Shown here: positions 1 through 37,973 of the stretch, piece after piece | Position numbering within the stretch: the stretch's first letter is position 1 | Layout: every line of letters starts with the position of its first letter | From: an uncultured Gammaproteobacteria bacterium | GTDB taxonomy: Bacteria; Patescibacteriota; Microgenomatia; UBA10105; UBA927 | Assembly (NCBI GenBank): GCA_964430295.1 | Contig: CAYSEV010000002.1 | Span: 7,024-71,023, forward strand | Length of the DNA stretch: 64,000 bases | Direction of reading: 5' to 3' | The notes under the pieces: model-generated | The model's database searches: none | Told to the model about the DNA's origin: nothing | What the model saw: the letters and a program-made list of their open reading frames with translations, nothing else | Made by a program: the position numbers and the translations under genes

Positions 1-732
1 CTTTTTCAGTCGAAATTATACGAAAAAGAACGATCGCTTTTTTCATGGATACTTATCATCGCTGCATTCTTTGTCAGTCAACTGAGCAGTATTTTTTGGG
101 GATCACGTATACTTCAGCTTCTTGTGCAATTTCCGTATAGACTCTTTTTATTTTGGATTGTTTCCGGTGCATGGATAATTGCTTATATATCGGAAAGTTG
201 GAAAAAAGTAGGAGTGATGTTGTCTGTACTATCGCTATGTTGGATGGGATATGGATCTATTGCATATTGGAATGCGGAGAGTGTTGTAAGAGATGATGGA
301 TATTTCAGTACGAATGAAGGAACGACGACGGTTGCAAATGAATACATGCCAAAATGGGTTTCTATACTCCCAAACAGACGTACAGACGAACGCATAGAAG
401 TGATAGAAGGAAATGTCCTGATTACTCCAATTCAGATCAACTCAAACAGAATATACGTAAAGCTTCATGCAAAAGAAGACAGTGAACTTCAAATCAATAC
501 GATATTTTATCCGGGTTGGGGAGCCATGATAGATGGGAGACCTATTTCTATTTCTTATAACAATAGTCAGGGCCTTATGCGTTTGCCGCTCTTGACAGGG
601 GATCATACGTTATTTATGGAATTCAGAGAAACAAGGAGCAGATTTGCAGCGGATATGCTGACACTTATATGTATCTTTACCTATATTGGTATGTATTTGA
701 TTCCTCACGTGCAAAAGAGGAGGGGTCATTAG
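1..732 (+). CDS. C-terminal part of a YfhO-like polytopic membrane glycosyltransferase (5' end lies upstream of the window)
   Basis: Frame 1 is open from nt 1 with no stop (the 124 'start' is a GTG artefact of the ORF caller). Ends with the YfhO-type C-terminal motif NTIFYPGWGAMIDGRPISI...GDHTLFMEF shared by other paralogs in the window. Confidence 0.6.
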   Translation, partial: LFQSKLYEKERSLFSWILIIAAFFVSQLSSIFWGSRILQLLVQFPYRLFLFWIVSGAWIIAYISESWKKVGVMLSVLSLCWMGYGSIAYWNAESVVRDDGYFSTNEGTTTVANEYMPKWVSILPNRRTDERIEVIEGNVLITPIQINSNRIYVKLHAKEDSELQINTIFYPGWGAMIDGRPISISYNNSQGLMRLPLLTGDHTLFMEFRETRSRFAADMLTLICIFTYIGMYLIPHVQKRRGH

Positions 733-2427
733 ATGAAATTTCCTAACATTAACAGATATTGGATAGGGCTTATCTTTTCGATGCTATTACTATGGTGGGC
801 AGTCAAACCGCTTCTTAACAATGGGTACTTCCCTATGCACGATGATACACAGGTTGCCCGTGTGATTGCGATGGGTAGTGCACTTCGTGAATATCAGTTT
901 CCTGTCCGCATGGTAGACGGATTAGGATATGGGTATGGGTATCCGATTTTTAACTTTTACTCACCACTTCCATATTATGTCGGTGGAATTCTTTACGCCG
1001 TTGGTATAGATCCATTTGTATCAACCAAGATCATGTTCCTATTACCGATACTTTTTGGATGTGTGTTTCTCTATATGTTTCTTGCCCCTGCGTACGGTAT
1101 AGCATCTGCTGTTATCGGAGCTCTTCTCTTTACATATGCACCATATCATGCGGTTCAACTATATGTTAGGGGATCCGTTGGAGAATATTGGGCTATCGCT
1201 TTTGTTCCTCTTCTTTTACTCTCTATAATGCGTATAACAACACATAAAACATATGATTGGCTCGCAGTGGGGTCATTATCTATGGCTGCGATCATTACGT
1301 CTCACACAATTCTCTCGGTTCTTGTTTTGACGTTGTACATCCTATGCACCATACTATATTTTTTCTATCAGGTTAATAGTAAAAAGTTAAAAGATATATC
1401 TTCGTATGTATCTATTATTTTGATGGTAGTAGGTGGACTTGGAGTATCTGCATTTTTTTGGTTACCAGCGTTTTTGGAAATGAAGTATACAGGAGTTTCA
1501 TCAATGATAGCAGCTGCACCGACTGGGTTTTATGACCATTTTGTTTGTCTCTATCAGTTATGGGACTCACCATGGGGTTTCGGTGGATCTGCACCAGGAT
1601 GTGTGAATGACGGAATGTCATTTAAATTAGGAAAAGTGCACATACTACTTATCTGTGTATCTCTTTGTGTATATTTATGGAAACGATTTGTACATGCGAA
1701 AAAATATACTTCGTTTCAAATAATGATTGGAATAACGGCGCTTGTACTATCACTCTTTGGCGTAGTTGAATATTCAACAGCTGTATGGAAGTTATTTCCA
1801 TTCACTTCTGTTGTTCAATATCCATGGAGACTTCTTTCTGTCGCTATGCTTGCATCTGCAGTGGTAGGAGCCTATGGTATTTCATATATTTCAAACTCGA
1901 GACCCAGAATCCTCACAGCTCTAGTAGTGGGTATTGGCATTATTGCTATAAATGCTAAATTATTTGTTCCTAAATTTATATTTACTCCGGATACGACAAT
2001 TTTTTCAGCATCAGATATACAATTTCGTGTGTCAAAAATTTCGGATGAATATCTGCCTGATAGTCTTATAAAACCAAAATTAGCCAGTGATGTCCCGGGT
2101 GAAGTTCTAACAGCGGGGCCGGATTCCAGGATAACTATACAAACAAAAAAAAGTACATACATACAAGCTCAGATAGAACAGTCAAAGACAGATGTCATCA
2201 CACTGCAAAAAGCCGCATTTCCTGGGTGGCAATTTACTATAGATGGAAAATCTGTACAATCTGATACTATACATGGATTGCCAGTGTTTACCCTGGAAAA
2301 AGGTAACCACACATTTGAGGCTGCATTTAAAGATACGCCTATTCGATCACAGAGTACTATAATAAGTGTCATGACACTGATTTTATTGGGAGGATTATTG
2401 TTCTATGGACAAAAAACCAAAACTTAA
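733..2427 (+). CDS. Polytopic membrane protein, PTPS-related/YfhO-like GT-C family (subfamily A)
   Basis: N-terminus HDDTQVARVIAMGSALREYQFPVRMVDGLGYGYGYPIFNFYSPLPYY matches the HDG..H...PRW...GYG.P.F.FYYPLP.Y signature of paralogs at 23292, 32281, 36390. C-terminal AAFPGWQFTIDGK...GNHTFEA domain. Strong AGGAGG Shine-Dalgarno upstream. Confidence 0.7.
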   Translation: MKFPNINRYWIGLIFSMLLLWWAVKPLLNNGYFPMHDDTQVARVIAMGSALREYQFPVRMVDGLGYGYGYPIFNFYSPLPYYVGGILYAVGIDPFVSTKIMFLLPILFGCVFLYMFLAPAYGIASAVIGALLFTYAPYHAVQLYVRGSVGEYWAIAFVPLLLLSIMRITTHKTYDWLAVGSLSMAAIITSHTILSVLVLTLYILCTILYFFYQVNSKKLKDISSYVSIILMVVGGLGVSAFFWLPAFLEMKYTGVSSMIAAAPTGFYDHFVCLYQLWDSPWGFGGSAPGCVNDGMSFKLGKVHILLICVSLCVYLWKRFVHAKKYTSFQIMIGITALVLSLFGVVEYSTAVWKLFPFTSVVQYPWRLLSVAMLASAVVGAYGISYISNSRPRILTALVVGIGIIAINAKLFVPKFIFTPDTTIFSASDIQFRVSKISDEYLPDSLIKPKLASDVPGEVLTAGPDSRITIQTKKSTYIQAQIEQSKTDVITLQKAAFPGWQFTIDGKSVQSDTIHGLPVFTLEKGNHTFEAAFKDTPIRSQSTIISVMTLILLGGLLFYGQKTKT

Positions 2428-3139
2428 TATTGTCTTACCTGTCTATAATGAGGAAGAAGAACTCTCTGAACATACAGAGACGTTAGTCAGGTATCTGAAA
2501 AGTGACCTTAAAGATTTTATATGGAGTGTGACAATCGCAGATAACGCGTCGACTGATAAGACGCTTGTTGTGGCAAATAAACTTGCCAAAAAATATCCTG
2601 AAGTACGCGTACTTCATTTGGATCAAAAGGGTAGAGGCAGAGCTGTAAAAGCCGCCTGGTTAGGAACGCAGGCAGATGTACACTGCTATATGGATATAGA
2701 TTTATCTACGGATCTCAAACACCTACCCGGACTCGTCCGTTCACTTATTCGGGGATATGATATAGCCATCGGCACGCGTAACGCCCAGGGGTCACGGGTA
2801 TACGGTAGAAGCTTACTTCGAACAATTACCTCAAAAGCGTATATCCTTATGATTAAATCAATATTTTTTGTTAAGTTTTCCGATGCGCAGTGCGGATTCA
2901 AGGCAATTACCGATGAAGCAGCAAAAAAAATATTGCCTCTCCTAAAGGATGATGAGTGGTTTTTTGATAGTGAACTATTAATCGTTGCAGAGAAACTAGG
3001 ATATCGGATCTATGAAGAGCATGTAACCTGGATAGATAATCCCGGTTCCACCGTGCGCGTAGTAAAAACTGCACAGGGAGATATCGAAGGCCTTATGCGT
3101 CTTTTTTTGCAACGGCCGTGGAAAAAAGCAACACTATAA
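2405..3139 (+). CDS. GT2 polyprenol-phosphate sugar synthase (DPM1/GtrB/CsbB-like)
   Basis: NIVLPVYNEEEEL...TIADNASTDKT...DIAIGTR motifs of the GT-A fold; size and architecture of dolichyl/undecaprenyl-phosphate glycosyltransferases. Confidence 0.7.
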   Translation: MDKKPKLNIVLPVYNEEEELSEHTETLVRYLKSDLKDFIWSVTIADNASTDKTLVVANKLAKKYPEVRVLHLDQKGRGRAVKAAWLGTQADVHCYMDIDLSTDLKHLPGLVRSLIRGYDIAIGTRNAQGSRVYGRSLLRTITSKAYILMIKSIFFVKFSDAQCGFKAITDEAAKKILPLLKDDEWFFDSELLIVAEKLGYRIYEEHVTWIDNPGSTVRVVKTAQGDIEGLMRLFLQRPWKKATL

Positions 3140-3143: not shown

Positions 3144-4586
3144 ATGAAAGAAACAGATATACATGCTATTAAAAAGCGTTCATTAACGGGAATTATTGCG
3201 TTGACATCCCGTACATTTTTACTGCAAATTATCGCATTTGCTTCAACATTCCTCTTGACTGTATTTTTGAGCCCTTCGATATTTGGTGTATTTTATGTAG
3301 TATCTGCTATTATTTCTTTTCTTTCTTATTTTTCTGATGTCGGGCTTGCCGCTGCACTTATTCAGAAAAAAGAAACGTTAACAGACGAAGATTTGATTAC
3401 CACATTTACCATACAGCAGCTATTAGTATTTCCTGTGAGTTTGGTTGCACTATTATGTTCATCATATGTAGGTACCTTTTATAAACTGGATGCATCAGGC
3501 ATCGCACTATTTCAGTCTTTGGTTTTTTCATTCTTTATTTCATCATTAAAGACGATTCCTTCTGTCCTTTTGGAACGAGAATTACAGTTTAACAAATTGG
3601 TTATACCGCAGATTGCAGAAACCATAGGTTTTTATGGTGTGGCAGTCATCATGGCATGGAAGGGCTTTGGGCTTACCAGTTTTACCTGGGCAGTTGTGAC
3701 TCGGGCAGTCATTGGATTTGTACTTATGTATAGTATCTCTCCATGGAAAATACGACTTGGTATTTCAAAACCTGTAGCAAAACGACTTCTTAAATTTGGT
3801 ATACCGTTTCAGATGAATTCACTCCTTGCTCTGGTAAAGGATGATTTGATGACAGTATTTTTAGGAAAAGTTCTGACATTTGAGCAAATAGGATATATAG
3901 GGTGGGCAAAAAAATGGGCGGAAGTGCCTCTACGGCTTATTATGGACAGTGTTATTCGAGTTACTTTTCCTGCATTTTCCCGTCTACAGCATTCGAAAGA
4001 ACACTTAGGCAGTGCAATCGAAAAAACGCTGTTTGGACTATCTGTTGCGATGATGCCGATCTCTGTAGGTCTCTTATATTTTATAGAACCGGCGGTACGT
4101 TTGATACCAAAATATGGTAAATGGGAACCTGCTCTTTTGTCTTTCTATATATTTGTATTGACTGCACTTTTGGCAGGATTTTCTACACCGCTTACCAACG
4201 CGCTGAATGCGGTGGGAAAGATTAAAACCACTATGTTCCTTATGATTTTCTGGACTGTCGGGACGTGGGTATTTACGCTTCTGTTTATTCCTATATTTGG
4301 ATTTAACGGATTTGCTATTACTATGTTTATACTTTCGCTTGCATTATTTGCCGTTATAAAGCTTTCCAAGTCTATTGCGGATTTTTCGTTTATATCTCAG
4401 ATAAAATGGCCATTTATAGCATCGTTGTGTCAGTTGGTATGGTATCAGGTAGCACGGGGAACACAACCGTATTCAACACCAAGACTGGCAGTCGTTGCCA
4501 TATCCGGTGTTATACTATATGGAGCGATCTTGTGGCATTTCGAACGAAAACGGATTGCAGAAATTGTCACCATAGCCAGAACCTGA
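3144..4586 (+). CDS. Wzx-like polysaccharide/oligosaccharide flippase (MOP superfamily)
   Basis: 480 aa, about 12-14 predicted TM helices, hydrophobic throughout, typical Polysacc_synt architecture, placed directly after a polyprenol-P-sugar synthase. Confidence 0.6.
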   Translation: MKETDIHAIKKRSLTGIIALTSRTFLLQIIAFASTFLLTVFLSPSIFGVFYVVSAIISFLSYFSDVGLAAALIQKKETLTDEDLITTFTIQQLLVFPVSLVALLCSSYVGTFYKLDASGIALFQSLVFSFFISSLKTIPSVLLERELQFNKLVIPQIAETIGFYGVAVIMAWKGFGLTSFTWAVVTRAVIGFVLMYSISPWKIRLGISKPVAKRLLKFGIPFQMNSLLALVKDDLMTVFLGKVLTFEQIGYIGWAKKWAEVPLRLIMDSVIRVTFPAFSRLQHSKEHLGSAIEKTLFGLSVAMMPISVGLLYFIEPAVRLIPKYGKWEPALLSFYIFVLTALLAGFSTPLTNALNAVGKIKTTMFLMIFWTVGTWVFTLLFIPIFGFNGFAITMFILSLALFAVIKLSKSIADFSFISQIKWPFIASLCQLVWYQVARGTQPYSTPRLAVVAISGVILYGAILWHFERKRIAEIVTIART

Positions 4587-4593: not shown

Positions 4594-5505
4594 ATGAAAC
4601 AGACTCTTTCAGTTGTTGTCTCCGCATACAATGAAGCGCATACACTAGGTCGTTGTTTAGCTTCTGTCGCCTTTGCAGATGAAATTATTGTTGTTGATAA
4701 CGAGTCACTGGATGACACAGCAAAAGTTGCCAGAACATTCACCAAAAACGTATATAGGCAGAAAAATCTGCTCATGCTCAACACAAATAAAAATGTTGGT
4801 TTCTCTAAAGCCACATCAGATTGGATATTAAATCTGGATGCAGACGAAGTTGTCCCGGAATCACTTGCGAAGGAAATTATAAGGATCATACAAGAAAATC
4901 CTAAAGAAAATGGATTTTGGATAGCCAGACGCAATTTCTCATTTGGTAAATGGATACAGCATGGGCTATGGTGGCCGGATAAACAGTTACGGTTGTTTAG
5001 AAGAAATAAAGGATCGTTTCCGTGTATCCATATTCATGAATATATTTCCGTAGAGGGTGAGGTTGGTACCCTCACAGAAGCCTACGATCATTATAATTAT
5101 GAATCTATTCATCAGTATCTGACAAAAATCGATCGTGCTTCAACGAGTGAAGCATTATCACTCAAAGAATCAAACTACGCATTATCCTGGTTTGATGCCC
5201 TCCGATTTCCCGTTTCTGATTTCCTGAAAATTTATTTTGCCCAACGTGGATATAAAGATGGACTTCATGGATTGGTTCTTGCTCTATTTCAATCGTTTTA
5301 TTCGTTTGCGGTTTTTGCAAAATACTGGGAGATGAACGGCTTTACTAAACGTGATATTACACCCGGTGAAATCACAACAGAATTACAACATAATGCAAAA
5401 GAAATGCAGTATTGGCAACTTTCCATGGGTATTGATGAAGACAAAAGTAGTGTAGGAAAGCTTCATAAAAAAATACTTCGAAAATTCATAAAAACATCAG
5501 TATGA
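4594..5505 (+). CDS. GT2 glycosyltransferase (WaaE/KdtX-like subfamily)
   Basis: LSVVVSAYNEAHTLGRCLASVAFADEIIVVDNESLDDT...LDADE and C-terminal WIARRNFSFGKWIQHGLWWPDKQLRLFRR, shared with paralogs at 6400 and 33927. Confidence 0.7.
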   Translation: MKQTLSVVVSAYNEAHTLGRCLASVAFADEIIVVDNESLDDTAKVARTFTKNVYRQKNLLMLNTNKNVGFSKATSDWILNLDADEVVPESLAKEIIRIIQENPKENGFWIARRNFSFGKWIQHGLWWPDKQLRLFRRNKGSFPCIHIHEYISVEGEVGTLTEAYDHYNYESIHQYLTKIDRASTSEALSLKESNYALSWFDALRFPVSDFLKIYFAQRGYKDGLHGLVLALFQSFYSFAVFAKYWEMNGFTKRDITPGEITTELQHNAKEMQYWQLSMGIDEDKSSVGKLHKKILRKFIKTSV

Positions 5506-6422
5506 AACAATCAGTCTACGCAATCATCGTAAATTGGAATGGTATAGAGGATACATTAAACTGTCTTCAGTCACTTTCAAAAATAAACCGTTCGTATGCA
5601 AATTTAACTGTTTTGGTTGTTGATAACGGATCTACAAATGATTCCGTTTCCCAGATACATAAAAAATATCCTGATGTAACAGTACTGGAAACAGGGAAAA
5701 ATTTGGGATTTACAGGTGGCAACAATGTAGGGATGGACTATGCTCTCTCCCATAACGCTGATTTTATATGGATGCTCAATAACGATACTCTTGTCCATAA
5801 AGATGTGCTTTCATTTGTTAATCAATTCAACGATCCAAAGGTTGGGGCATGCGGAAGTAAAATATATTTTGCAAAAGGACATGAATATCATGCTGACAGA
5901 TATACAGATAAAGAGCGCGGGCATGTATTATGGTACGCAGGTGGCAAGGTGGACTGGCAAAATATCTATGCATCGCACCGGGGTGTTGATGAAGTGGATC
6001 ATGGGCAGTATGACACAGTAGAAGAAACCCCGTTTATAACCGGATGCTCGTTTATTGTACGCTCTGATATTGTTAAATCAGTCGGTAAACTTGATGATGC
6101 ATACTATTTATACCTTGAAGATCTGGACTGGAGTGTCCGTATACAGCGTGCAGGGTATACATTACAGTATGTTCCAACGTCCATGCTGTGGCATGTGAAT
6201 GCAGGATCCTCCGGGAAGCCTGGAAATCCGACACATGAGTATTACTTTACCCGCAATAGACTCATATTTGGATTTAGATATGCATCTCTTCGTACGAAAT
6301 TTGCATTGGTTCGGGAAGCAGGCAGATTTTTTGTCGGCGCATCCTCTGTGCGACGACGTGCAGTGTCGGATTGGCTGCTTCGAAAATTCGGTAAACAATA
6401 TGAGCCAAAAAAAATCAATTGA
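5502..6422 (+). CDS. GT2 glycosyltransferase (rhamnosyltransferase/WbbL-like)
   Basis: SVYAIIVNWNGIEDTLNCLQSL...LVVDNGSTNDS...GGNNVG motifs. Confidence 0.7.
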   Translation: MKQSVYAIIVNWNGIEDTLNCLQSLSKINRSYANLTVLVVDNGSTNDSVSQIHKKYPDVTVLETGKNLGFTGGNNVGMDYALSHNADFIWMLNNDTLVHKDVLSFVNQFNDPKVGACGSKIYFAKGHEYHADRYTDKERGHVLWYAGGKVDWQNIYASHRGVDEVDHGQYDTVEETPFITGCSFIVRSDIVKSVGKLDDAYYLYLEDLDWSVRIQRAGYTLQYVPTSMLWHVNAGSSGKPGNPTHEYYFTRNRLIFGFRYASLRTKFALVREAGRFFVGASSVRRRAVSDWLLRKFGKQYEPKKIN

Positions 6423-7194
6423 TGCAATCATCATAGCCAAAAATGAATCTGCAAGGATTAGAGCGTGCATACAGCATCTGTCGTTTTGTTCTCATATCTT
6501 TGTCATCGATAACGGTTCAACGGATGACACAATCGCATCTGCAAAAAAATCAGGAGCAATAGTCTACACAACCGATTCAAAAAATTTCGCAGATGTGCGA
6601 AATTTGGGAGCAACATATTCAACAGCAGACTGGCTGTTGTATATAGATGCAGATGAATTTGTCAGCCCTTCACTGCAAACAGAGGTAGAAGATGTGATCG
6701 CAGGAAATAGCGATATAAAAGGATATAGAATACTTCGTGATAATTATTACCTAGGGTATCTGTGGCCTACTCATGATGGTATGGTTCGGCTTATTCATCG
6801 AACATCACTTACAGCGTGGCGTGGAGATATCCATGAACATGCTGAAATTCAAGGGACTGTGGGAGTGCTAACAAACCATCTTATTCATGACACACATCGA
6901 ACGCTTCATGAGATGACGGAAAAAACAAACGAGTGGTCAGAAATAGAAGCGAAACTGCGGTTTGATACAAACCATCCGCAAATTGTCCCATGGCGACTGT
7001 TTCGTGTCATGTTGACGGGATTTTTTACGTCGTATATGAAAGATGGCGGATGGAAAATGGGAACTGTCGGGCTAATTGAAAGTATTTTTCAGGCTTTCAG
7101 TATGTTTACCACATACGCCAAACTGTGGGAATTACAACAGAAGGCGAATGATAAGTCAAAAGGGAAAAGTGTAAAGTCGAAAAATGATTTATGA
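6400..7194 (+). CDS. GT2 glycosyltransferase (WaaE/KdtX-like paralog)
   Basis: The listed ORF starts at 6199 but overlaps the upstream gene by >200 nt. The internal ATG at 6400 (MSQKKSIDAIIIAKNESARI...VIDNGSTDDT...YIDADE) gives a canonical GT2 N-terminus and a 23-nt overlap. C-terminal ILRDNYYLGYLWPTHDGMVRLIHR is paralogous to 4594 and 33927. Confidence 0.65.
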   Translation: MSQKKSIDAIIIAKNESARIRACIQHLSFCSHIFVIDNGSTDDTIASAKKSGAIVYTTDSKNFADVRNLGATYSTADWLLYIDADEFVSPSLQTEVEDVIAGNSDIKGYRILRDNYYLGYLWPTHDGMVRLIHRTSLTAWRGDIHEHAEIQGTVGVLTNHLIHDTHRTLHEMTEKTNEWSEIEAKLRFDTNHPQIVPWRLFRVMLTGFFTSYMKDGGWKMGTVGLIESIFQAFSMFTTYAKLWELQQKANDKSKGKSVKSKNDL

Positions 7195-9524: not shown

Positions 9525-10554
9525 TCCATATTTTGATTCACTTGGTGGCGGGGAACGCTATATGTTTTCCATAGCTGCACGCGTATCGGGAAGTCATACT
9601 GTACATATATTTTGGGATGATCCAAACATTCTCCAAAAAGCATCAGAGCGGTTTATGCTGGACCTTCGAACTGTATCCGTCGTGCCAAATGTATTTGCTC
9701 ATGGCTCGTTTATAGAGAAGCTGTCTGTCACAAAAAAGTATGATGCTATATTTTTTCTGACGGATGGAAGTATTCCATTTAGTCTCGCAAAACATAACAT
9801 TCTTCATATACAGGTACCCTTTGCCCATATCGATATGCCATTCTGGAAACGGCTGCGATTTAACACTGTTATATATAATTCGAAATTTACATACGAGCAT
9901 GCGGATAGGTCAATTGCAGCTATTGCACATCAGATTATCTATCCGCCGGTGAAACCAATACAGGCATCTGCCGCATCAAAAACAAAACAGATTCTCTCAG
10001 TCGGACGGTTCGGCGGTCTCTATAATGCAAAAAAGTTTGATGTTCTGATAGATGCATTTGAAACATTCATACAGGAAAAAGCATATAAAGGCTATACACT
10101 TGCACTTGCAGGTGGCGTCCTTTTAACAGATACACATGCATTTGAAGCGCTCAGAAAACGGGTAGAAAAACTTCCTGTTGTTTTGTATCCGGACTGTCCG
10201 TATAAAACGCTTATTTCTTTGTACGAAGAGTCTTCTGTGTATTGGCATGCGGCAGGGTTTGGTGAAACTAAACCTGAAAATATGGAACATTTTGGTATTG
10301 CGCCTGTGGAAGCCATGAGTGCCGGAACAGTCCCAGTTGTATATAACGGAGGTGGACTGCCGGAAATAGTAACAGATGGTACAGATGGATATCTGTGGAA
10401 TACTCCCGAGAAGCTCGTGGCAAAAACCAAAGAACTGGTATCTGACCCGATCGTATATAACAAACTATCTGCACAGGCAATGATAACAGCACAAAAATTT
10501 TCAACTGACGCATTTAATACGCAGATAGATATGGTACTCAAGTCGTTCACATAA
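9505..10554 (+). CDS. GT4 (GT-B fold) glycosyltransferase
   Basis: MNIGIVSPYFDSLGGGERY N-terminus and FGIAPVEAMSAGTVPVVYNGGGLPEIV (E-x7-E region) typical of GT4/GT1 retaining glycosyltransferases. Confidence 0.75.
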   Translation: MNIGIVSPYFDSLGGGERYMFSIAARVSGSHTVHIFWDDPNILQKASERFMLDLRTVSVVPNVFAHGSFIEKLSVTKKYDAIFFLTDGSIPFSLAKHNILHIQVPFAHIDMPFWKRLRFNTVIYNSKFTYEHADRSIAAIAHQIIYPPVKPIQASAASKTKQILSVGRFGGLYNAKKFDVLIDAFETFIQEKAYKGYTLALAGGVLLTDTHAFEALRKRVEKLPVVLYPDCPYKTLISLYEESSVYWHAAGFGETKPENMEHFGIAPVEAMSAGTVPVVYNGGGLPEIVTDGTDGYLWNTPEKLVAKTKELVSDPIVYNKLSAQAMITAQKFSTDAFNTQIDMVLKSFT

Positions 10555-14474: not shown

Positions 14475-14520
14475 AAATGCAAATTTAAATTCCTAAGGAA
14501 ATTTATTTGCCAGTAATAAG

Positions 14521-14612: not shown

Positions 14613-14624
14613 AGCAGTTGCCAT

Positions 14625-18065: not shown

Positions 18066-18069
18066 TGCT

Positions 18070-30682: not shown

Positions 30683-32284
30683 ATGTATTCTATGAAACAA
30701 CATAAAAAAATAAAAAAAGAGCTGCAACCCACTGTTCCTTTTCAACAGACTGGAACAAACAGACTGTATATAGGGCTGATTATTTGTATAGTTGTTTGGG
30801 GTATATTTCTTCGGAGTGTAGAATTGTTTAATGGAAATTTTCTGTTTGGGCTTGACCATGGGAGAGATTTTCTGGCTGCATATAATATAGTAGAGAATCA
30901 CAAACTGACGTTAATCGGAGCAGAGGCAGGCTCCGGAGTGGCTGGTATTAATGGCATTTTTCATGGACCGGGATACTTTTATCTTATCGCACTCTCATAT
31001 ATTCTTTTTGGCGGAAACCCTATTGGAGCAGAAGTGTTTATGGTGTTGTTTGGCGTGCTTGCGATTCTTTTTTCTATTAAATTTGGCTATGAATTGTGTG
31101 GAAAAGTTGGCGCAGTTCTTGCAACATTTTTTGTAACTGTCTCTCCACTTATTGTGTCGCAATCGCGATTTATCTGGAGCAGTCATCCTATTACTATTTT
31201 TGTATTGCTTTCCATATACTGTGTCTATCAGATACCAAAAAAACCGATTCTGTTTGCACCACTAGCTGTGTTTCTTGCAGGATTTACATATCATTCACAA
31301 CTGGGAGTTGCTGTCCCACTTACAGTTTCTGTACTTCTTGCCATACCTCTTGTATATAGAATTTCGGATTGGAAGGTGTATGCGTGGTCTTTTTTTGCAT
31401 TAATCATTGCGTATAGTCCTATGGCGTTTTTTGAACTGCGGCATAATTTTATGGCGGTACGAAGTGCCATTTCCTATGTGACGATCGGTGACTCTACCGG
31501 TGTTCATACACCGATTCTTGATCCTTTACGCCTGGCTAACCATACATTTGATTATTGGAATAATTTTTATAATACATTCACCTATGAATTTGGGTGGATA
31601 CCATGGGCAAAACAAATGGTGGTGCTTAAGATTATTCTACCGATTGTGGGTCTAGGTGCACTGCTCGTGAAAGAGAAGAAACAAAGACAATTTCTTTGGT
31701 TTATACTTCTCATGACCGTAACCACATGGGCAGGATTTTTACTGCTCAATAATACAGTATGGGATTATTATCTGACTCATACGCGCATCGGCTATATTCT
31801 ATTTTTTGTTATCTGCATGACAGCGCTGTGGAGGCAGAGAAAGCAATCTATTATCAAAAACGTCGGCGTTCTGCTTTGTGCAGTATTCATCGCGACAGTG
31901 GCATTTGGTTCCGTATTTCGACAATATGTTTCGTACACAATAGATATAAAAGACACAAATGTCATAGATAAAGTGAGGGCAAAGAAAGCAGTTATAGATA
32001 TGATGTATACCGACGCGGCCGGTCAGCCGTTTTCTGAATTTATTTTTGTTCCTCCTATTTATACATACGCATATGATTATTTATTTATGACCTATGGAAA
32101 AAAGCGGTATGGTTACGTTCCGGGAAAAGAAAAACATGGAATTGCATATCTGTTGATAGAACCGGATAATGGTCAACCATGGAGACAAAAAGGATGGCTT
32201 GAAACGGTGGTGCAGGGAGGGGAAACTGTTTGGAAAAAAACTATATATAATGGCATCATACTTGAAAAGAGGGTATATCCATGA
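30683..32284 (+). CDS. GT-C (ArnT/PMT-like) membrane glycosyltransferase
   Basis: 533 aa polytopic. FLFGLDHGRDFLAAYNIVENHKLTLIGAEAGSGVAGINGIFHGPGYFYL first extracytoplasmic loop with acidic residues, analogous to the GT39/GT83 DE loop. Confidence 0.55.
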   Translation: MYSMKQHKKIKKELQPTVPFQQTGTNRLYIGLIICIVVWGIFLRSVELFNGNFLFGLDHGRDFLAAYNIVENHKLTLIGAEAGSGVAGINGIFHGPGYFYLIALSYILFGGNPIGAEVFMVLFGVLAILFSIKFGYELCGKVGAVLATFFVTVSPLIVSQSRFIWSSHPITIFVLLSIYCVYQIPKKPILFAPLAVFLAGFTYHSQLGVAVPLTVSVLLAIPLVYRISDWKVYAWSFFALIIAYSPMAFFELRHNFMAVRSAISYVTIGDSTGVHTPILDPLRLANHTFDYWNNFYNTFTYEFGWIPWAKQMVVLKIILPIVGLGALLVKEKKQRQFLWFILLMTVTTWAGFLLLNNTVWDYYLTHTRIGYILFFVICMTALWRQRKQSIIKNVGVLLCAVFIATVAFGSVFRQYVSYTIDIKDTNVIDKVRAKKAVIDMMYTDAAGQPFSEFIFVPPIYTYAYDYLFMTYGKKRYGYVPGKEKHGIAYLLIEPDNGQPWRQKGWLETVVQGGETVWKKTIYNGIILEKRVYP

Positions 32285-33945
32285 CGTTGTTACGGAAAAT
32301 TCCGATATGGATTTGGCTCCTTATTGCAGGTATTTTACCGATACTATCTTTAATTACTCCGGGACTTCCTATCACGCATGATGGGTCGGATCATGTGGCA
32401 CGAATTGCAAATTTTTATTTGGCTCTAAAGGAAGGAATAATCGTTCCGCGATGGGCTTCAAGTTTAAATTGGGGGTACGGACATCCTATTTTGATGTTTC
32501 TCTATCCACTATCTTCTTATACAGCGTCGCTGTTTCATGCGATAGGATTCTCATTTATAGATAGTACAAAATTGGTGTTTGCAGTTGGATATGTAGCAAG
32601 TATATGGGCAATGTATCTGTGGGTAAAAAAAATGTTTGGAGAAAAACCGGCGATTATCGGCTCATTATTATATGGTTTTGCTCCATACCGTTTTGTGGAT
32701 CTGTATGTTCGCGGAGCTATCGGTGAACATATGGCATTCATATTTCCACCACTCTTCTGTTATTTCCTTTTGCTTCTTTCTAAGGAAAAATCTGTGCGAA
32801 AAAATATAGGTTCAGGGATTGGCTTAGCGGTATCTTTCGCCGGCCTCATGCTGGCGCACAACGCTATTGCACTTATGATGATCCCGCTTTTTGTTCTGTA
32901 TGGAATATATTTGCTGAAGTTTGAGGCAGTGAAAAAACTTCAGTTTATTATTCTCTCAAAAATATCGGTTATTCTAGGCTTTGGATTATCTGCATTTTTT
33001 TGGATTCCGGCTTTTTTTGAAGGAAAATATACACTACGCGATATTGTTACTGCTGGAGAGGTTTTAGAACGGTTTGTCCCTTGGACAAACTTTTTTTATT
33101 CACCATGGAATTTCGGCGGGACAGATATGCTCTCAAAATCCCTGGGAGTAGCAGGAATTTTCTTAGTTGGTGCATCAATCTATACCATTACAAAATGGGG
33201 GAATCAAAAGCTAAAATTATTTACAGTCGTAAATCTGTTGATATTACTTATAACACTTGTGTTGATGACCTCCATTTCAAAACCCATATGGATGGCACTG
33301 ACAATTCTACAAAAATTTCAATTTCCCTGGCGGTTTCTTTCTGTAACAACAGTACTTGTTTCACTTATTGGTTCAACTGTCGTATATCTAATTGAGCAAA
33401 AAATATCTAAACATATATTTTCTTTATTGTTTATTAGCTACTGTTTATTGATCATTTTTTCAACTGTCCATATGTGGCACCCTAAAGCATATCAGAAAAA
33501 AAATGAATCCTATTTTACCGGTATATATATGAGTACTACAGATACCGGTGAAAGTAGTCCTATATGGTCCATCAGATTTATGGAACATACACCTAATGCC
33601 GTTTCTGAGGTTATAGATGGGGAAGCCACTATACAGCAGACCTATCGTTCAACCACGAGACATACATATACGATAACTGCATCTAAACCATCCAGGATTT
33701 TGGAAAATACGTTATATTTTCCAGGATGGAACACATACGTAGACAATACTCCCGTCACTATGCAGTTTCAGGATCCGAATTACAGAGGACTGATCACATA
33801 TGATATTTCGCAGGGGTCTCATGTTGTCTCTGTCCGGTTTGAAGATACAAAAGTTAGAAAGCTTGCGAATATCATATCTATAGTCAGTGGTTTTCTACTT
33901 GTATTCCTATTTATACTATGTACTGTATGGAAAAGAAAAAAATAA
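32281..33945 (+). CDS. PTPS-related/YfhO-like GT-C membrane protein (subfamily A paralog)
   Basis: ITHDGSDHVARIANFYLALKEGIIVPRWASSLNWGYGHPILMFLYPLSSY plus C-terminal LYFPGWNTYVDNTPV...GSHVVSVRF. Confidence 0.7.
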   Translation: MTLLRKIPIWIWLLIAGILPILSLITPGLPITHDGSDHVARIANFYLALKEGIIVPRWASSLNWGYGHPILMFLYPLSSYTASLFHAIGFSFIDSTKLVFAVGYVASIWAMYLWVKKMFGEKPAIIGSLLYGFAPYRFVDLYVRGAIGEHMAFIFPPLFCYFLLLLSKEKSVRKNIGSGIGLAVSFAGLMLAHNAIALMMIPLFVLYGIYLLKFEAVKKLQFIILSKISVILGFGLSAFFWIPAFFEGKYTLRDIVTAGEVLERFVPWTNFFYSPWNFGGTDMLSKSLGVAGIFLVGASIYTITKWGNQKLKLFTVVNLLILLITLVLMTSISKPIWMALTILQKFQFPWRFLSVTTVLVSLIGSTVVYLIEQKISKHIFSLLFISYCLLIIFSTVHMWHPKAYQKKNESYFTGIYMSTTDTGESSPIWSIRFMEHTPNAVSEVIDGEATIQQTYRSTTRHTYTITASKPSRILENTLYFPGWNTYVDNTPVTMQFQDPNYRGLITYDISQGSHVVSVRFEDTKVRKLANIISIVSGFLLVFLFILCTVWKRKK

Positions 33946-34709
33946 CTCTTTCAGTTGCTCTTGCGGTTTTTAATGAATCAAAAAATCTTCGGATGTGTCT
34001 GGATTCTATTAAAGATATTGCCGATGAACTCATTATCGTGGATGGGGGATCATCCGATAATACCGTAGCTATTGCAAAAGAATATCATGCAACGGTCATT
34101 CAGACCGATAATCCGAAAATATTTCATATAAATAAACAAAAAGCACTCGATGAGTGTACATGTATGTGGATATTGCAACTGGATGCTGATGAGGTTATTC
34201 CCGAAGATCTTAAAAAAGAAATCGTTTCAACAATTAACAATGAACAATCAACCATCAACGGTTACTATATCCCAAGAAGTAATTATTTTTGGGGACATTT
34301 TATGAAAAAGGGAGGACAATACCCGGATAGTGTTATCCGTCTGGTTAAGAACGGGTACGCGACATTTCCTTGCAAAAGCGTACATGAACAAATTTTAATT
34401 CAGGGTAATGTTGGTACATTACTACACCCGATGAAACATTACACGTATCGTACACGCGCAGATTACTGGAAAAAAGCACATATCTATACATCACTGACTG
34501 CGTCGGAATTGAAAAACACGTATGGAAATACAATCGGTGCAAAAATAAGACTACTGTTTATATACGGATTATTGAAGCCAATAATCACATTCTTGACAAT
34601 ATATATCCGCCACAAAGGATTTGTAGATGGACTGACCGGATTTGAGTTTTCTCTCTATAGTGCTCTTCATTATACGTGGGCATATATAAAGTATCTTCGA
34701 AACATATGA
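33927..34709 (+). CDS. GT2 glycosyltransferase (WaaE/KdtX-like paralog)
   Basis: ITLSVALAVFNESKNLRMCLDSIKDIADELIIVDGGSSDNT...LDADE and YYIPRSNYFWGHFMKKGGQYPDSVIRLVKNG. The start could also be 33918. Confidence 0.7.
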   Translation: MEKKKITLSVALAVFNESKNLRMCLDSIKDIADELIIVDGGSSDNTVAIAKEYHATVIQTDNPKIFHINKQKALDECTCMWILQLDADEVIPEDLKKEIVSTINNEQSTINGYYIPRSNYFWGHFMKKGGQYPDSVIRLVKNGYATFPCKSVHEQILIQGNVGTLLHPMKHYTYRTRADYWKKAHIYTSLTASELKNTYGNTIGAKIRLLFIYGLLKPIITFLTIYIRHKGFVDGLTGFEFSLYSALHYTWAYIKYLRNI

Positions 34710-35245
34710 AAAAATATTTCTTAAATAGTGTATTAATTATTGCTTATTTTTTACTTACACATCCTTTGCAGGTTTATGCGGAATATATGCTTCCATATCC
34801 ATCAACAATGCCGGGAAATAAGATATATAAAATTTCGCGAGTTTTGGATTCGCTAAAAGCATATTGGTATGTTGGTGACATCGCGCAGGTAAAATACCAT
34901 CTTATGCTAAGTGATAAATATCTGGTCGAATCAAAAACACTTTTTGAATATAAACAGTATCTTTTGGCACGAGATGCTCTAAAAAGATCAGATGTGCATT
35001 TTACTGCACTCAAAGAGGCACTGGTTCATATAAAACAAAGCGGGAAAAATGTTACTGAGAGTAGCCGTACTGTTTCTGAAGCGGCAGATGCACATATTCA
35101 GGTTCTTAATACGTTACAAAATGTAATGCCTGAAGTGTTTGATTGGATACCCGAGAAAGGCGAAAAAACTCATATATCAATAACAGAATTACTTTCAAAT
35201 GCAAAACAAATACGTATGTCTGTTCGCCAAACTATTGAGAAATAA
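34706..35245 (+). CDS. Secreted alpha-helical protein of unknown function
   Basis: Signal peptide MKKYFLNSVLIIAYFLLTHPLQVYA, then a charged, helix-prone sequence. No recognisable catalytic motif. Confidence 0.45.
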   Translation: MKKYFLNSVLIIAYFLLTHPLQVYAEYMLPYPSTMPGNKIYKISRVLDSLKAYWYVGDIAQVKYHLMLSDKYLVESKTLFEYKQYLLARDALKRSDVHFTALKEALVHIKQSGKNVTESSRTVSEAADAHIQVLNTLQNVMPEVFDWIPEKGEKTHISITELLSNAKQIRMSVRQTIEK

Positions 35246-35247: not shown

Positions 35248-36393
35248 ATGAAGCGTATTGTGTATGTTATCTCCATATTCATTGCTTTTTATATACTTTT
35301 TCTTTCGTATGCATTTCTGGATGTACATATATCACTTGCTCCATCATTTCCTGTAGAGTCATATCTAGTACAGATTAATGCATATGCGAGAAATCATCGG
35401 CCGGAAATGACAACACTATGGCTATTGGCATGCTGTGCGTTAAGTGCTTGTTACGTATATATTCTAAAAACAGCACATACTATAGGAAAAAAATCTTATA
35501 AATTCGTTTGGATTTGCATTGCGACTACTGCCATCATACTAGCGTTCGCATATCCCGCCACCTCCTATGATCTTTTCAACTATATAACAACGGCAAAAGT
35601 TACATATTACTATAAAGAAAATCCATATATCGTTATGCCTGTGGAATTCACGGGTGAGCCATATCTTGCATTTACCAGAGCTGCAAATAAAACTGCGCTC
35701 TATGGTCCTGTATGGATACTTATTACTGCAGTTCCATATATGTTGGGTGGTGAAAATATCTGGGCAACTATAATAACCTTTAAACTGTTAAATACAGCAG
35801 TTTATTTATTGTTCTTATATTGCATTTTCCGCATAACCAGATCAATGAAAAATGTTCTTTTTTTTGCATTTAATCCGTTGGTATTACTCGAAGTCCTTGT
35901 ATCAGGACATAACGATATATATATGATGATTTTTTCGTTAAGCGGCATATACCTCTGGTGGCACAATAGAAAAATATCCGGGTTTTTCTTATTCTTCCTT
36001 TCCTGGTTTATAAAAGGCATGACGATAACATTTTTGCCGCTTCTTTTCTTTCGAAATAAATCCTGGGAGCACATACTTCGATTCGCGTATTGGGTCGCAT
36101 TGTTTGTGTTTTTTGTTTTCGCCCCGCTTCGCGAAGAGTTATATCCTTGGTATGCAATATGGTTTATATCAATTGCCTCTCTTATGAATTTTGAAACTAA
36201 CCGGTTTATATATTCTCTTACAGTAGTCTTGTCTCTCACTCTGGAACTGCGACATTTACCGTATATGTGGATGGGTTACTATGAAGGTCCGGGGCCGATG
36301 CTGCGGATGCTTATCACCGGTATTCCTGTCTGTATATTTCTTCTAATATACCCTCTAATGAAATATAAACAATCACTATCTGTAAGAATATGA
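35248..36393 (+). CDS. Polytopic membrane protein, possible GT87/DUF2029-like GT-C glycosyltransferase
   Basis: 381 aa, about 9-10 TM helices. ATSYDLFNYITTAKVTYYYKENPY loop after early TMs resembles the DUF2029 mannosyltransferase family. Weak call. Confidence 0.4.
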   Translation: MKRIVYVISIFIAFYILFLSYAFLDVHISLAPSFPVESYLVQINAYARNHRPEMTTLWLLACCALSACYVYILKTAHTIGKKSYKFVWICIATTAIILAFAYPATSYDLFNYITTAKVTYYYKENPYIVMPVEFTGEPYLAFTRAANKTALYGPVWILITAVPYMLGGENIWATIITFKLLNTAVYLLFLYCIFRITRSMKNVLFFAFNPLVLLEVLVSGHNDIYMMIFSLSGIYLWWHNRKISGFFLFFLSWFIKGMTITFLPLLFFRNKSWEHILRFAYWVALFVFFVFAPLREELYPWYAIWFISIASLMNFETNRFIYSLTVVLSLTLELRHLPYMWMGYYEGPGPMLRMLITGIPVCIFLLIYPLMKYKQSLSVRI

Positions 36394-37973
36394 GTATACG
36401 TAGCATTGTTTTGTGGATTTGTTGTTTGTTTCTCATAGTGAATGCAGTTTTTTCATTAACCGGGTCATCATATATACCGACACATGACGGTGAGTACCAT
36501 ATTATTCGCATTGTCGAATTTTCAAAAATGCTTAGGGCAGGATATCTCTTTCCCCGATGGGCACCCGACTTAAACAGCGGATATGGTATTCCTATATTCC
36601 AATATCATTATCCGCTCCCAAATTATATAGGCTCTATACTACGATTTGTTGCGCATGATGCAGTCTATGCATTTCAATGGTCATTGGTTTTTGCATACAT
36701 TGCTGTTGTAATAGGATTTTTTTATTGGTTATCCTGTTTTTATTCAATTCCCATAGCATTTTTTGGGTCAGTGATTGGGTCTTACACACCGTATCTTTTC
36801 CTTGATATCTATGTACGGGGTGTTATTGGAGAGGTATGGGCAATCGCATTATTTGGATTTATATTAGGAAATATAGAGCGCAAGCGTTACTTATTTGCAT
36901 CTTTGTGTTTTGCTCTTCTAATACTTTCTCATAATATTTCTGCAATGATATTTGGCATATATGTATGTTGCTACGCACTCTATAGGCATCGAAACGTATA
37001 TTTTTTGGCAATCGGTGCACTTTTGGCATCTTATTTTTGGATACCTGCTGTATTTGAACAAACGTATGTAGTAGGTTTAAACACAGTTAATTTTCGTGAC
37101 CATTTTGTACAACTATATGAATTTCTGATCCCTTCATGGGGCACACAGTTTTCAGCAACGGGTGCAATAGGAAATAAAATGTCATTTCAGTTCGGAATTA
37201 TACCTCTCAGTATCAGCATCCTTGTAGTCATTGGCAGTGTGCGTGAAAAAAATATGAGAGTTGCATCACCACTGCGTTTTTTAGTGTTAACGATGTTTGC
37301 CTTTATGTTGTTATTTCCGATTTCAACGCCAATCTGGAATGTGTTGTTTCCTCTGCAGTTTGTACAATATCCATGGAGATTTTTATCGTTTGCTATTCCT
37401 ATTACAGCATTTGGAGTGTCATACATTATATATAAACGTAAATCTTTTATGCTCTCTCTGTTGATATTAGTTAGTGTCTTAGGTCTTACATGGAAGTATG
37501 TTCGACCAGTTTTGTATCAACCAAGGAATGAATCGTATTATCTGTCTAGGTCAAATTTTACAGATGGCACATCATCTATGGGAAACAGTTTTTCTACAGT
37601 GTGGTCTTCGTGGAAAGAAACAAGACCAATATCAGATATTACAGTGAATCATGGGATCATTACGACGAGGATAGTATCCCGCTACCTTAAAAAAACGTTC
37701 CAGGTCAACATGTCTCAACACGGAGAAGTGCAGGTAAATACCGTATATTTCCCTGGTTGGATTGCATATGTAGATGGTAAGCAAACAGAAATAGAGTATA
37801 AAAAAGATGGAATAATACACATATCTGTACCTGAAGGAGTTCATGAGATAACAATTTATTTTACTGAAACGCCACTGCGATTGTTCGCAGATGTTTTATC
37901 AATTGCCAGTTTAATAGGTGTACTAGGATGGGGTATACTTTCACTACGAAACGCAAAAGATCGCGTTACATAA
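36390..37973 (+). CDS. PTPS-related/YfhO-like GT-C membrane protein (subfamily A paralog)
   Basis: IPTHDGEYHIIRIVEFSKMLRAGYLFPRWAPDLNSGYGIPIFQYHYPLPNY plus C-terminal VYFPGWIAYVDGKQTEIEYKK...GVHEITIYF. Confidence 0.7.
   Translation: MSIRSIVLWICCLFLIVNAVFSLTGSSYIPTHDGEYHIIRIVEFSKMLRAGYLFPRWAPDLNSGYGIPIFQYHYPLPNYIGSILRFVAHDAVYAFQWSLVFAYIAVVIGFFYWLSCFYSIPIAFFGSVIGSYTPYLFLDIYVRGVIGEVWAIALFGFILGNIERKRYLFASLCFALLILSHNISAMIFGIYVCCYALYRHRNVYFLAIGALLASYFWIPAVFEQTYVVGLNTVNFRDHFVQLYEFLIPSWGTQFSATGAIGNKMSFQFGIIPLSISILVVIGSVREKNMRVASPLRFLVLTMFAFMLLFPISTPIWNVLFPLQFVQYPWRFLSFAIPITAFGVSYIIYKRKSFMLSLLILVSVLGLTWKYVRPVLYQPRNESYYLSRSNFTDGTSSMGNSFSTVWSSWKETRPISDITVNHGIITTRIVSRYLKKTFQVNMSQHGEVQVNTVYFPGWIAYVDGKQTEIEYKKDGIIHISVPEGVHEITIYFTETPLRLFADVLSIASLIGVLGWGILSLRNAKDRVT

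Follow-up and report, generated by a model that had tools for sequence, protein, structure and literature searches.

Why would a bacterium whose genome measures only about 1 Mb, or even less, need so many membrane-bound glycosyltransferases? This question is raised by a 64 kb stretch of DNA (64,000 nucleotides of contig CAYSEV010000002.1, positions 7,024 to 71,023; hereafter the window), in which 19 genes encode proteins resembling glycosyltransferases of the GT-C fold. Our analysis suggests that the window holds most of a cell-envelope glycosylation supercluster which is conserved across the Microgenomates, a lineage of the candidate phyla radiation (CPR), and in which lipid-linked sugars would feed the GT-C enzymes. 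We give this reading, including the proposed mechanism, a probability of roughly 0.6. Judging by the gene content, the cells probably make a very elaborate, so far undescribed sugar coat outside the membrane. Genes are named below by their lower coordinate in the window.

All 50 open reading frames (ORFs) of at least 150 aa in the window were scanned with Pfam, and by these scans the entire 64 kb is given over to glycan synthesis. Within positions 1 to 37,973, 16 of the 27 ORFs encode polytopic GT-C-like membrane proteins according to Pfam, BLAST and hydropathy, which together occupy 26.9 kb or 71% of the bases. GT-C genes continue past this point (55368, 58924 and 62126), bringing the total to 19 genes, 33.2 kb and 52% of the bases: three YfhO, five PTPS-related-like, seven PMT_2-like, one GT87-like and three AftD-like proteins without a Pfam family. 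An initial annotation of the first 38 kb or so had counted four YfhO, four PTPS-related and seven to eight GT39-like genes there. The abundance stood; the split had to be changed to three, five and seven plus the GT87-like gene. The GT-C-type matches in this part have individual Pfam E-values of 1e-5 to 1e-24, so that a chance origin is nil. Ten of the 19 proteins scored over a Pfam gathering cut-off and nine fell below it or had no match. A hydropathy scan found 6-13 transmembrane (TM) segments in all 18 full-length candidates. The genes are tightly packed, mainly on the plus strand, and many neighbours share 4-60 bp or stand less than 10 bp apart. In relatives, at least two further GT-C genes (one MptA_B-type, one PMT_2-type) lie upstream of the point where the window begins.

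Three proteins exceed the gathering cut-off of the YfhO family (PF09586, 28.5 bits):

7191 to 9524, plus strand: YfhO-family GT-C, core; 85.9 bits, invariant D60 in the first loop.
10559 to 12787, plus strand: YfhO-family GT-C, core; 69.8 bits, 31% identity to 7191.
24907 to 27336, minus strand: YfhO-family GT-C in the variable part of the cluster; 72.5 bits, 28-29% identity to 7191 and 10559.

The mutual identity of the trio is thus 28-31% in BLASTP. In 7191 and 24907, the TM bundle is followed by an extracytoplasmic stretch of about 270-290 aa and then by a final TM helix. In 10559 the C-terminal beta-sandwich is present, and the chain stops right after it, without that helix. Since the orthologues of 10559 are equally long (742 aa), the absence of the helix is conserved rather than due to truncation. 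A search with 7191 yielded upward of 120 clusters of orthologues that are 49-69% identical to it, and all named ones are Microgenomates (Gottesmanbacteria, Woesebacteria, or simply "Microgenomates group"). These named homologues place the source of the window, a metagenome-assembled genome, in the Microgenomates.

The PTPS-related-like group (PF10131, gathering cut-off 26.4 bits) comprises five proteins:

1 to 732, plus strand: PTPS-related-like GT-C, 3' part, running off the start of the window; 22-26% identity in BLASTP to the C-terminal halves of 32281, 23292, 36390 and 733, with the motif FYPGWGAMIDG.
733 to 2427, plus strand: PTPS-related-like GT-C of the core cassette; PF10131 at 40 bits, about 10 TM segments plus a C-terminal one, mHDD..qvaR loop.
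23292 to 24992, minus strand: PTPS-related-like GT-C (modelled); PF10131 at 64.4 bits.
32281 to 33945, plus strand: PTPS-related-like GT-C; 33% identity to 23292 over 525 aa, tHDGsdHvaR loop and YFPGWNTYVDN motif.
36390 to 37973, plus strand: PTPS-related-like GT-C heading the second module of a GT-C, a Dpm1-like GT2 and a Wzx flippase; PF10131 at 42.5 bits.

ORF 1-732 had been counted as the fourth YfhO. It missed the PF09586 cut-off (16.9 bits), as did 36390 (26.7 bits, in the C-terminal part only), and it gave no BLASTP match to any of the YfhO trio. We rejected the YfhO assignment as BLAST groups the ORF with the PTPS-like proteins, and it is this alignment that makes the split three YfhO and five PTPS-like. 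Its full-length orthologue in the related locus L001 has 518 aa. Members of the group are 27-34% identical to each other and share the motifs HDG..H..R and YVRG..GE. Two of them, 32281 and ORF 1-732, have no PF10131 match and were placed by BLAST (22-34%); 32281 lies below every Pfam cut-off, its sole Pfam match being PMT_2 at 24.6 bits. The C-terminal motif YFPGW..YVDG had been ascribed to all YfhO and PTPS-related proteins. The form Y.PGW..VDG does occur in each of the five PTPS-like proteins as well as in 7191, whereas 10559 and 24907 show Y[ND]PNW variants. The TM core of the PTPS-like proteins is homologous to that of YfhO (hhalign probability 98.7%).

Seven PMT_2-like proteins (PF13231, gathering cut-off 26.1 bits) and one GT87-like protein complete the set in the first 38 kb:

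15764 to 17089, minus strand: PMT_2-like GT-C, divergent; 40.5 bits, 81% identical to its orthologue in L001.
18055 to 19743, plus strand: PMT_2-like GT-C with a WDE loop; 44.1 bits, PF02366 at 26.5 bits (residues 26-176), WDEVSIGYNA motif.
19851 to 21656, minus strand: PMT_2-like GT-C, divergent; 32.4 bits, 21-24% identity to the PMT_2 core group.
21566 to 23305, minus strand: PMT_2-like GT-C; 20.8 bits, below cut-off, 29-31% identity to 18055, 27372 and 29003.
27372 to 29006, plus strand: PMT_2-like GT-C with a WDE loop; 32.0 bits, WDEVSIGYNA motif.
29003 to 30676, plus strand: PMT_2-like GT-C; 23.1 bits, below cut-off, 33% identity to 18055.
30683 to 32284, plus strand: PMT_2-like GT-C, divergent; 24.3 bits, below cut-off, weak BLAST links to 18055, 15764 and 19851.
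35248 to 36393, plus strand: GT87/MptA-type GT-C candidate; PF09594 at 23.9 bits (cut-off 25), TIGR03459 at 37 bits (cut-off 439), eight TM segments.

Four of them (18055, 27372, 29003 and 21566) form a core group with 29-33% identity, to which 19851, 15764 and 30683 are more distantly related. The motifs quoted in the initial annotation do exist, WDEVSIGYNAYSILKTGKDE in 18055 and 27372 with degenerate forms elsewhere and HDG..H..R in the PTPS group; across the seven PMT_2-like proteins only the Asp is invariant. An identification with GT39 Pmt did not hold. Pfam reported neither a MIR nor a PMT_4TMC domain in any PMT_2-like paralog, and PF02366 matched only 18055, over a short stretch. We therefore rejected the genes as bona fide GT39 Pmt; by domain content they are predicted PMT_2/ArnT-like proteins rather than true Pmt. 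Likewise, 35248, formerly listed as GT39/PMT_2-like, gave weak GT87/MptA-type matches only; it has a DLFNY stretch and is, on this weak evidence, a probable GT87/MptA-type GT-C. The Pfam assignment that had been suggested as a check thus put three YfhO, three PTPS_related and four PMT_2 proteins above their cut-offs, and left 21566, 29003, 30683, 32281 and 35248 below.

Further downstream, between 54 and 64 kb, three GT-C genes lie with two companions:

54320 to 55429, plus strand: GT2 with a two-TM C-terminal anchor of GtrB/CsbB-like topology; PF00535, TM helices at 298 and 324, overlapping 55368.
55368 to 57671, plus strand: AftD-like GT-C without a Pfam family; AlphaFold model, D48 invariant in the family.
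58924 to 61149, plus strand: second AftD-like GT-C without a Pfam family; 23% identity to 55368 over 584 aa, GGDDGRFYY loop.
61153 to 62124, plus strand: conserved 320-aa membrane protein between two GT-C genes; six TM segments, copy in the related locus L085 at 17136-18098.
62126 to 63886, plus strand: third GT-C without a Pfam family, from a large family related to 55368 and YfhO (hhalign); invariant D9.

Even at E<=10, no Pfam match was obtained for 55368, 58924 and 62126, nor for the neighbouring proteins 48737 and 14908. Among the 120 of 221 homologues of 55368 that were listed, none has a Pfam domain, and the few named ones are all from CPR bacteria. The called start of 55368 is probably too far upstream, as the database copy has 758 aa and begins nine codons later. 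The family of 62126 has 2053 cluster representatives at E<=1e-3. It shows full-length homology to the family of 55368 (hhalign probability 99.8%, E 5e-28) and is linked to YfhO with a probability of 96.3%; YfhO and the 55368 family are in turn linked through their C-terminal domains, at 96.6%. The GT2 gene 54320 and the GT-C gene 55368 are also paired in L085, an arrangement like that of csbB and yfhO. A second GT2, 45503 (45503-46516), is a paralog of 54320, with which it has the two-TM C-terminal anchor and an F[IV]PYA...HVP motif in common. The protein 61153 belongs to no Pfam family (a match at E 0.16 is at chance level); its first TM helix, at the N-terminus, is followed by an outside domain of about 140 aa and then by the other five TM helices. 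In the window and in L085 it always stands between an AftD-like and a 62126-type GT-C gene, and because of this constant position it may be an accessory subunit.

Structure models of two proteins bear on the fold of the families. The AlphaFold2 model of 23292 reached a mean predicted local distance difference test score (pLDDT) of 92.2 and a predicted template modelling score (pTM) of 0.92, and that of 55368, from a 35-sequence alignment, 85.4 and 0.86. Both show a helical bundle followed by an outside domain, and both match GT-C enzymes. The top 27 matches of the 23292 model in a Foldseek search of the PDB are all GT-C (PglB, STT3, AglB, AftD, AftB, AftA, ArnT, Pmt4); transporters appear only at probabilities below 0.2, and the TM-scores to oligosaccharyltransferases are modest (0.37-0.48). 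For the Pfam-less family, the best structural neighbour is AftD, a polysaccharide arabinosyltransferase. A search of PDB sequences with PMT_2-like, YfhO-profile and PTPS-like queries returned nothing meaningful. An Asp just after the first TM helix is invariant in each subfamily: D60 in YfhO, the HD pair at 45-46 in the PTPS-like proteins, the D of the WDE loop in PMT_2, D48 in the 55368 family and D9 in the 62126 family. In GT-C enzymes, this first-loop position is occupied by the catalytic acidic residue or a modified DxD motif (PMC5836110). Sequence and models together thus assign the family members to GT-C. Family membership, the neighbouring Dpm1-like GT2s and the flippases point to polyprenyl-phosphate sugar donors that would be used on the outer membrane face.

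Is this collection of genes peculiar to one genome, as the word expansion in the initial annotation implied? A scan of one genome per GTDB species gave 262 relatives, from which 80 loci were retrieved, 46 of them full-length. They belong to Gottesman-, Woese-, Levy- or Roizmanbacteria or to unnamed Patescibacteria; among named genomes the closest are Gottesmanbacteria (e.g. 77% identity for the GT2 2405). A core cassette recurs in the following order: a PMT_2-like gene, a PTPS-like gene, the PTPS-like 733, the Dpm1-like GT2 2405, the Wzx flippase 3144, the GT2s 4594, 5502 and ~6427, YfhO 7191, the GT4 9505, YfhO 10559 and the GT2 17139. Orthologues of 733 are present in all 46 full-length loci, and in Levybacteria a 39010-type GT2 occupies the slot of 2405. 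Nine core genes are collinear in 40 of the 46 loci, which contain 4-10 GT-C-like ORFs per 22 kb (median 7). Downstream of the cassette follow variable sets of PMT_2, YfhO and PTPS-like genes. A relative that is about 66% identical (contigs of 809-840 kb) keeps the gene order of the window from 1 to ~35 kb, and L085 keeps the downstream module of a GT2, a 745-aa GT-C, methyltransferases, a 734-aa GT-C and proteins of 320, 492 and 591 aa.

The duplications appear to be old. Orthologues of 7191 score a median of 700 bits, compared with 318 bits for its paralog, and those of 10559 a median of 607 bits, compared with 324 bits for the next paralog. Since orthologues outscore paralogs across the Microgenomates, the duplications predate the divergence of these lineages. 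The initial annotation had rightly called them ancient; its figure of 40-50% identity between paralogs was too high, as an all-against-all BLASTP within the window gives 21-34%. With the collinear core cassette recurring in 40 of 46 loci, gene order and sequence comparison indicate that the locus is an ancient, lineage-wide supercluster and no expansion peculiar to this genome. In the course of this survey we observed that dozens of GTDB-representative metagenome-assembled genomes with a Microgenomates locus (e.g. L004, L007, L010) are titled "uncultured Gammaproteobacteria bacterium". This title is a submitter placeholder or a mislabel and could mislead taxonomy-based searches.

The window also encodes candidates for the synthases and flippases of lipid-linked sugar donors, together with other glycosyltransferases and tailoring enzymes:

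2405 to 3139, plus strand: soluble Dpm1/PgfS/ArnC-like GT2, candidate polyprenyl-phosphate-sugar synthase, core; PF00535, overlapping 733 by 23 bp.
3144 to 4586, plus strand: MOP/Wzx-type flippase, core; Polysacc_synt_3 at 175 bits, NCBIfam matches to MOP flippase and O-glycosylation Wzx, 12 TM segments.
4594 to 5505, 5502 to 6422 and ~6427 to 7194, plus strand: three soluble GT2s, core; PF00535 and related, collinear orthologues in relatives.
9505 to 10554, plus strand: GT4 (Glycos_transf_1), core; PF00534 at 74.8 bits.
17139 to 18065, plus strand: GT2, core; PF00535 at 79 bits, in 46 of 46 full-length loci.
33918 to 34709, plus strand: GT2 with one C-terminal TM helix (residue 210); PF00535 at 74 bits.
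37928 to 39013, plus strand: GT4 (Pfam).
39010 to 39696, plus strand: Dpm1/AglJ/PpgS-like GT2, candidate donor synthase; NCBIfam AglJ at 118 bits over the full length.
39750 to 41003, plus strand: second MOP/Wzx flippase (Pfam, NCBIfam).
40990 to 41781, plus strand: PgfS/ArnC-like GT2; NCBIfam PgfS, ArnC and PpgS matches.
41784 to 54263, plus strand: block of nucleotide-sugar tailoring enzymes and cytoplasmic glycosyltransferases (Pfam).
51595 to 52320, minus strand: methyltransferase (Pfam).

In NCBIfam, 2405 matches PgfS (52 bits), ArnC (36) and dolichyl-P hexose transferase (36) and is also PpgS-like; 39010 also resembles dolichyl-P hexose transferase, PgfS and ArnC. The ORF called at 6199-7194 probably starts too far upstream: it overlaps the preceding gene by 224 bp, and its orthologues have 255 aa, which puts the start at ~6427. 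Two complete modules of a GT-C, a Dpm1-like GT2 and a Wzx flippase, with overlapping or abutting genes, can be recognized (733/2405/3144 and 36390/39010/39750, the latter optionally with 40990). Judged by gene content alone, these modules and the pair 54320/55368 would provide a multi-component transmembrane glycosylation set of GT-A enzyme, flippase and GT-C. The co-occurrence with Dpm1-like GT2s (2405, 39010, 40990) and flippases (3144, 39750), noted initially, was borne out by NCBIfam and Pfam. Because the GT-C genes sit with Dpm1-like GT2s and Wzx flippases, elaborate extracytoplasmic glycosylation is the natural reading. There are about 19 GT-C proteins and perhaps 3-7 candidate donor synthases in the window.

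The block from 41784 to 54263 encodes two DegT aminotransferases, a hexapeptide (LbH) acyltransferase, a GFO/IDH/MocA oxidoreductase, an SDR epimerase, a UDP-GlcNAc 2-epimerase and a GNAT protein, as well as a GT4 and the GT2s 45503, 47689 and 50514. A DegT aminotransferase, the hexapeptide acyltransferase and the GFO/IDH/MocA oxidoreductase are consecutive at 42913-45524. We take this trio to resemble a WbpE/WbpD/WbpB-type set for 2,3-diacetamido sugars; if it is one, the transferred residues would include unusual amino sugars. The cluster also contains a 189-aa DUF5667 protein (34676-35245) and a 260-aa protein without a Pfam match (48737-49519).

Based on these components, we propose the following mechanism. 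Cytoplasmic enzymes of the 41-54 kb region would tailor nucleotide sugars. The soluble Dpm1/PgfS/ArnC-like GT2s (2405, 39010, 40990) and the two-TM-anchored GT2s (45503, 54320) would load single sugars onto polyprenyl phosphate, and lipid-linked oligosaccharides may be lengthened by further GT2 and GT4 enzymes. The MOP/Wzx flippases 3144 and 39750 would then carry the lipid-linked sugars over the membrane. On the outside, each GT-C would transfer a sugar by means of its first-loop Asp, with its own linkage or acceptor specificity. The likeliest acceptor is a wall- or membrane-anchored glycopolymer, which would be held by the C-terminal beta-sandwich common to YfhO, PTPS-like and AftD-like proteins; we favor it because of the polysaccharide-type context, AftD as the closest structure and this common domain. 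What the invariant core cassette builds would be common to the whole lineage, with diversity added by the variable GT-C proteins encoded on its flanks. A few lipid donors would feed many GT-C enzymes, as in the assembly of mycobacterial arabinogalactan and lipoarabinomannan (LAM). In the mycobacterial envelope, a few lipid donors (decaprenyl-P-arabinose, polyprenyl-P-mannose) serve many GT-C enzymes. Of this scheme, we observed the fold, motifs, gene content and conservation; we infer which donors are used, that they are flipped, that the GT-C enzymes act on the outer face, and what the acceptor is.

Systems of this kind are known. In Gram-positive bacteria, a GT-A enzyme, a GtrA- or Wzx-type flippase and a GT-C glycosylate lipoteichoic acid, wall teichoic acid and rhamnan outside the cell (PMC8035078, PMC5836110). 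The CsbB/GtcA/YfhO, GtlA/GtlB, CsdAB/CD/EF with CflA, and GacI/J/K/L systems follow the same logic, from a GT2 via a flippase to a YfhO- or PMT_2-type GT-C (PMC8035078, PMC5836110). The GacI/J/K/L variant, with its cytoplasmic GT-A and Wzx-type flippase, matches the modules 733/2405/3144 and 36390/39010/39750 (PMC8035078). Moreover, it is thought that AftD, and potentially Staphylococcus aureus YfhO as well, binds the acceptor polymer through its extracellular carbohydrate-binding domains (PMC8035078). However, the Firmicutes reviewed there have about one to three scattered, one-to-one GT-A/GT-C pairs, whereas the window has 19 clustered GT-C genes and far fewer candidate donor synthases. It also differs in lacking a GtrA-family flippase, in having PTPS-related-like and Pfam-less AftD-like GT-C proteins in addition, and in belonging to a CPR host with a genome of ~1 Mb or less.

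The ratio of donors to GT-C enzymes rather resembles that of the mycobacterial and corynebacterial EmbA/B/C, AftA-D, MptA/B, PimE and Pmt proteins. At the sequence level no window protein could be assigned to the Emb/Aft/Mpt families: Pfam found no PF11847/DUF3367 match for 55368, and the GT87 match stayed below cut-off. They are also about half the size of AftD, and the window genes are clustered, while those of mycobacteria are dispersed. The streptococcal Pgf and GtrB-PgtC2 and the actinobacterial Ppm1/Pmt systems combine YfhO-domain or PMT-type GT-C proteins with undecaprenyl-phosphate or polyprenyl-phosphate sugars made by GT2s (PMC12041528). The window has PgfS-like GT2s and PMT_2-like DE loops in common with them, but no reported MIR or PMT_4TMC domain, no adhesin or Ser/Thr-rich substrate nearby and far more GT-C genes.

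Several observations weigh against the proposed supercluster and its mechanism. Six of the 19 assignments combine sub-threshold Pfam matches with BLAST or hhalign links, the weakest being 35248. No GT2, GT4 or GT-C exceeded an NCBIfam equivalog cut-off, the scores of the Dpm1-like proteins being far below, and for this reason the donor synthases are called by what they are most similar to. The initial annotation had expected YfhO to pair with a CsbB-type GT2. No CsbB/GtrB-type membrane-anchored GT2 was found paired with the YfhO genes, whose upstream genes encode a soluble GT2 or a GT4. A GtrA (PF04138) flippase gave no match among the 50 ORFs, smaller ORFs having been checked in only one intergenic gap; Wzx-type flippases are present instead. 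By Pfam, the 64 kb contain no WecA/WbaP-type initiating phosphoglycosyl transferase, no LCP ligase and no Wzy_C domain. Finally, the PMT_2 group has a Pmt-like DE loop, and YfhO-type enzymes O-glycosylate proteins in streptococci (PMC12041528).

These last two points make protein O-glycosylation a serious rival. The main job of the locus would then be to glycosylate S-layer proteins, pilins or Ser/Thr-rich disordered regions of membrane proteins directly from polyprenyl-phosphate donors, for which actinobacterial Ppm1/Pmt and streptococcal PgfS/PgfM1/PgfM2 and GtrB/PgtC2 are precedents. The DE pair is found at the aligned loop-1 position in 18055, 27372, 29003 and 21566 and nearby in 19851; with the PF02366 match of 18055, the extracellular action of streptococcal YfhO-domain enzymes on proteins (PMC12041528) and PgfS among the top NCBIfam matches of 2405 and 40990, it fits this idea. 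We nevertheless consider it unlikely: apart from the missing MIR and PMT_4TMC domains, the Wzx flippases, the many cytoplasmic GT2 and GT4 enzymes and the nucleotide-sugar block are typical of a polysaccharide locus, AftD is the best structural neighbour of the Pfam-less family, and no substrate protein is obvious in the window. Some of the YfhO, PTPS-like or AftD-like proteins could instead act on flipped polyprenyl-diphosphate oligosaccharides, as en-bloc oligosaccharyltransferase, polymerase or ligase (analogues of PglB/AglB, Wzy and WaaL). In favor of this, Pfam detects neither a Wzy nor a ligase, although four soluble GT2s, a GT4 and a Wzx flippase are encoded in the core cassette, and PglB, STT3 and AglB are the top Foldseek matches of the PTPS-like model. 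However, the corresponding TM-scores are modest, the same list includes AftD, AftA/B, ArnT and Pmt4, no WWDxG-type oligosaccharyltransferase motif was seen, although no search was aimed at it, and the window has no initiating phosphoglycosyl transferase. Such a role is less probable still.

Two other explanations are very improbable. One holds that the cluster arose by recent tandem amplification in this genome alone, or is an island that was acquired horizontally or binned wrongly, and that its copies are largely redundant. The high gene density and an inserted GmrSD (PADLOC HEC-06) defence nuclease would be in line with it, but the paralogs are so dissimilar (21-34%), and the orthologues in other Microgenomates phyla so much closer, that we rejected recent amplification; in addition, the gene order is kept in 40 of 46 loci and over ~35 kb in the relative, and the GC content is even across the window (0.34-0.41). 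The other, with even less in its favor, is that the multi-TM proteins are transporters or other membrane proteins without glycosyltransferase activity. Their polytopic nature and the nine without a Pfam score over cut-off would allow this. The initial annotation had set a check against transporter families beforehand, and the proteins came out as GT-C: ten of them score over GT-C Pfam cut-offs, all subfamilies have the first-loop Asp, and both structure models match GT-C enzymes, with transporters only at Foldseek probabilities below 0.2, on which ground we rejected transporter identity.

One interval of the cluster is of a different kind. A GmrSD-type nuclease is encoded at 12870-14474 (Pfam GmrSD_N and GmrSD_C; PADLOC HEC-06/Orf5 at 312 bits), and a lipoprotein with a LIAGC lipobox and no Pfam match at 14908-15624; both lie between YfhO 10559 and PMT_2 15764. 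In the syntenic loci L001 and L084, the interval 12870-15624 has only a 159-aa ORF, and in the window its GC content dips to 0.36. It looks like the insertion of defence genes into the glycan cluster.

While the component families and the general mechanism are already known, three aspects appear to be new: about 19-21 clustered GT-C genes in a genome of ~1 Mb or less, a collinear locus across the Microgenomates, and two or three GT-C families absent from Pfam, of which one is a compact AftD-like protein. A literature search combining CPR, Microgenomates or Patescibacteria with GT-C, YfhO and mannosyl- or glycosyltransferase found no description of the locus; its coverage was incomplete, with most subscription papers outside, so a prior mention is possible.

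CPR bacteria (Patescibacteria) make up a large share of bacterial diversity, are mostly uncultured and have a minimal metabolism. Since they are thought to live attached to other cells, their surface would be the seat of their biology. That half of 64 kb is spent on extracytoplasmic glycosyltransferases implies a major uncharacterised envelope glycan or glycoproteome. The locus offers a lineage-wide genetic marker, a defined set of enzymes for heterologous work and two or three GT-C families missing from Pfam, one of which has a compact AftD-like architecture that would suit structural work. More tentatively, and with somewhat less than even confidence, we suggest that Microgenomates with genomes of ~1 Mb or less spend ~3-4% of their DNA (a figure that takes the relative's contigs, 809-840 kb, as roughly genome-sized) on a lineage-wide GT-C "assembly line" as complex as that for mycobacterial arabinogalactan/LAM and including at least two families not in Pfam. 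It would build an undescribed envelope glycopolymer, possibly central to their episymbiotic surface biology, in which the core would specify the common structure and the flanks strain-level diversity, for example for host recognition or phage evasion.

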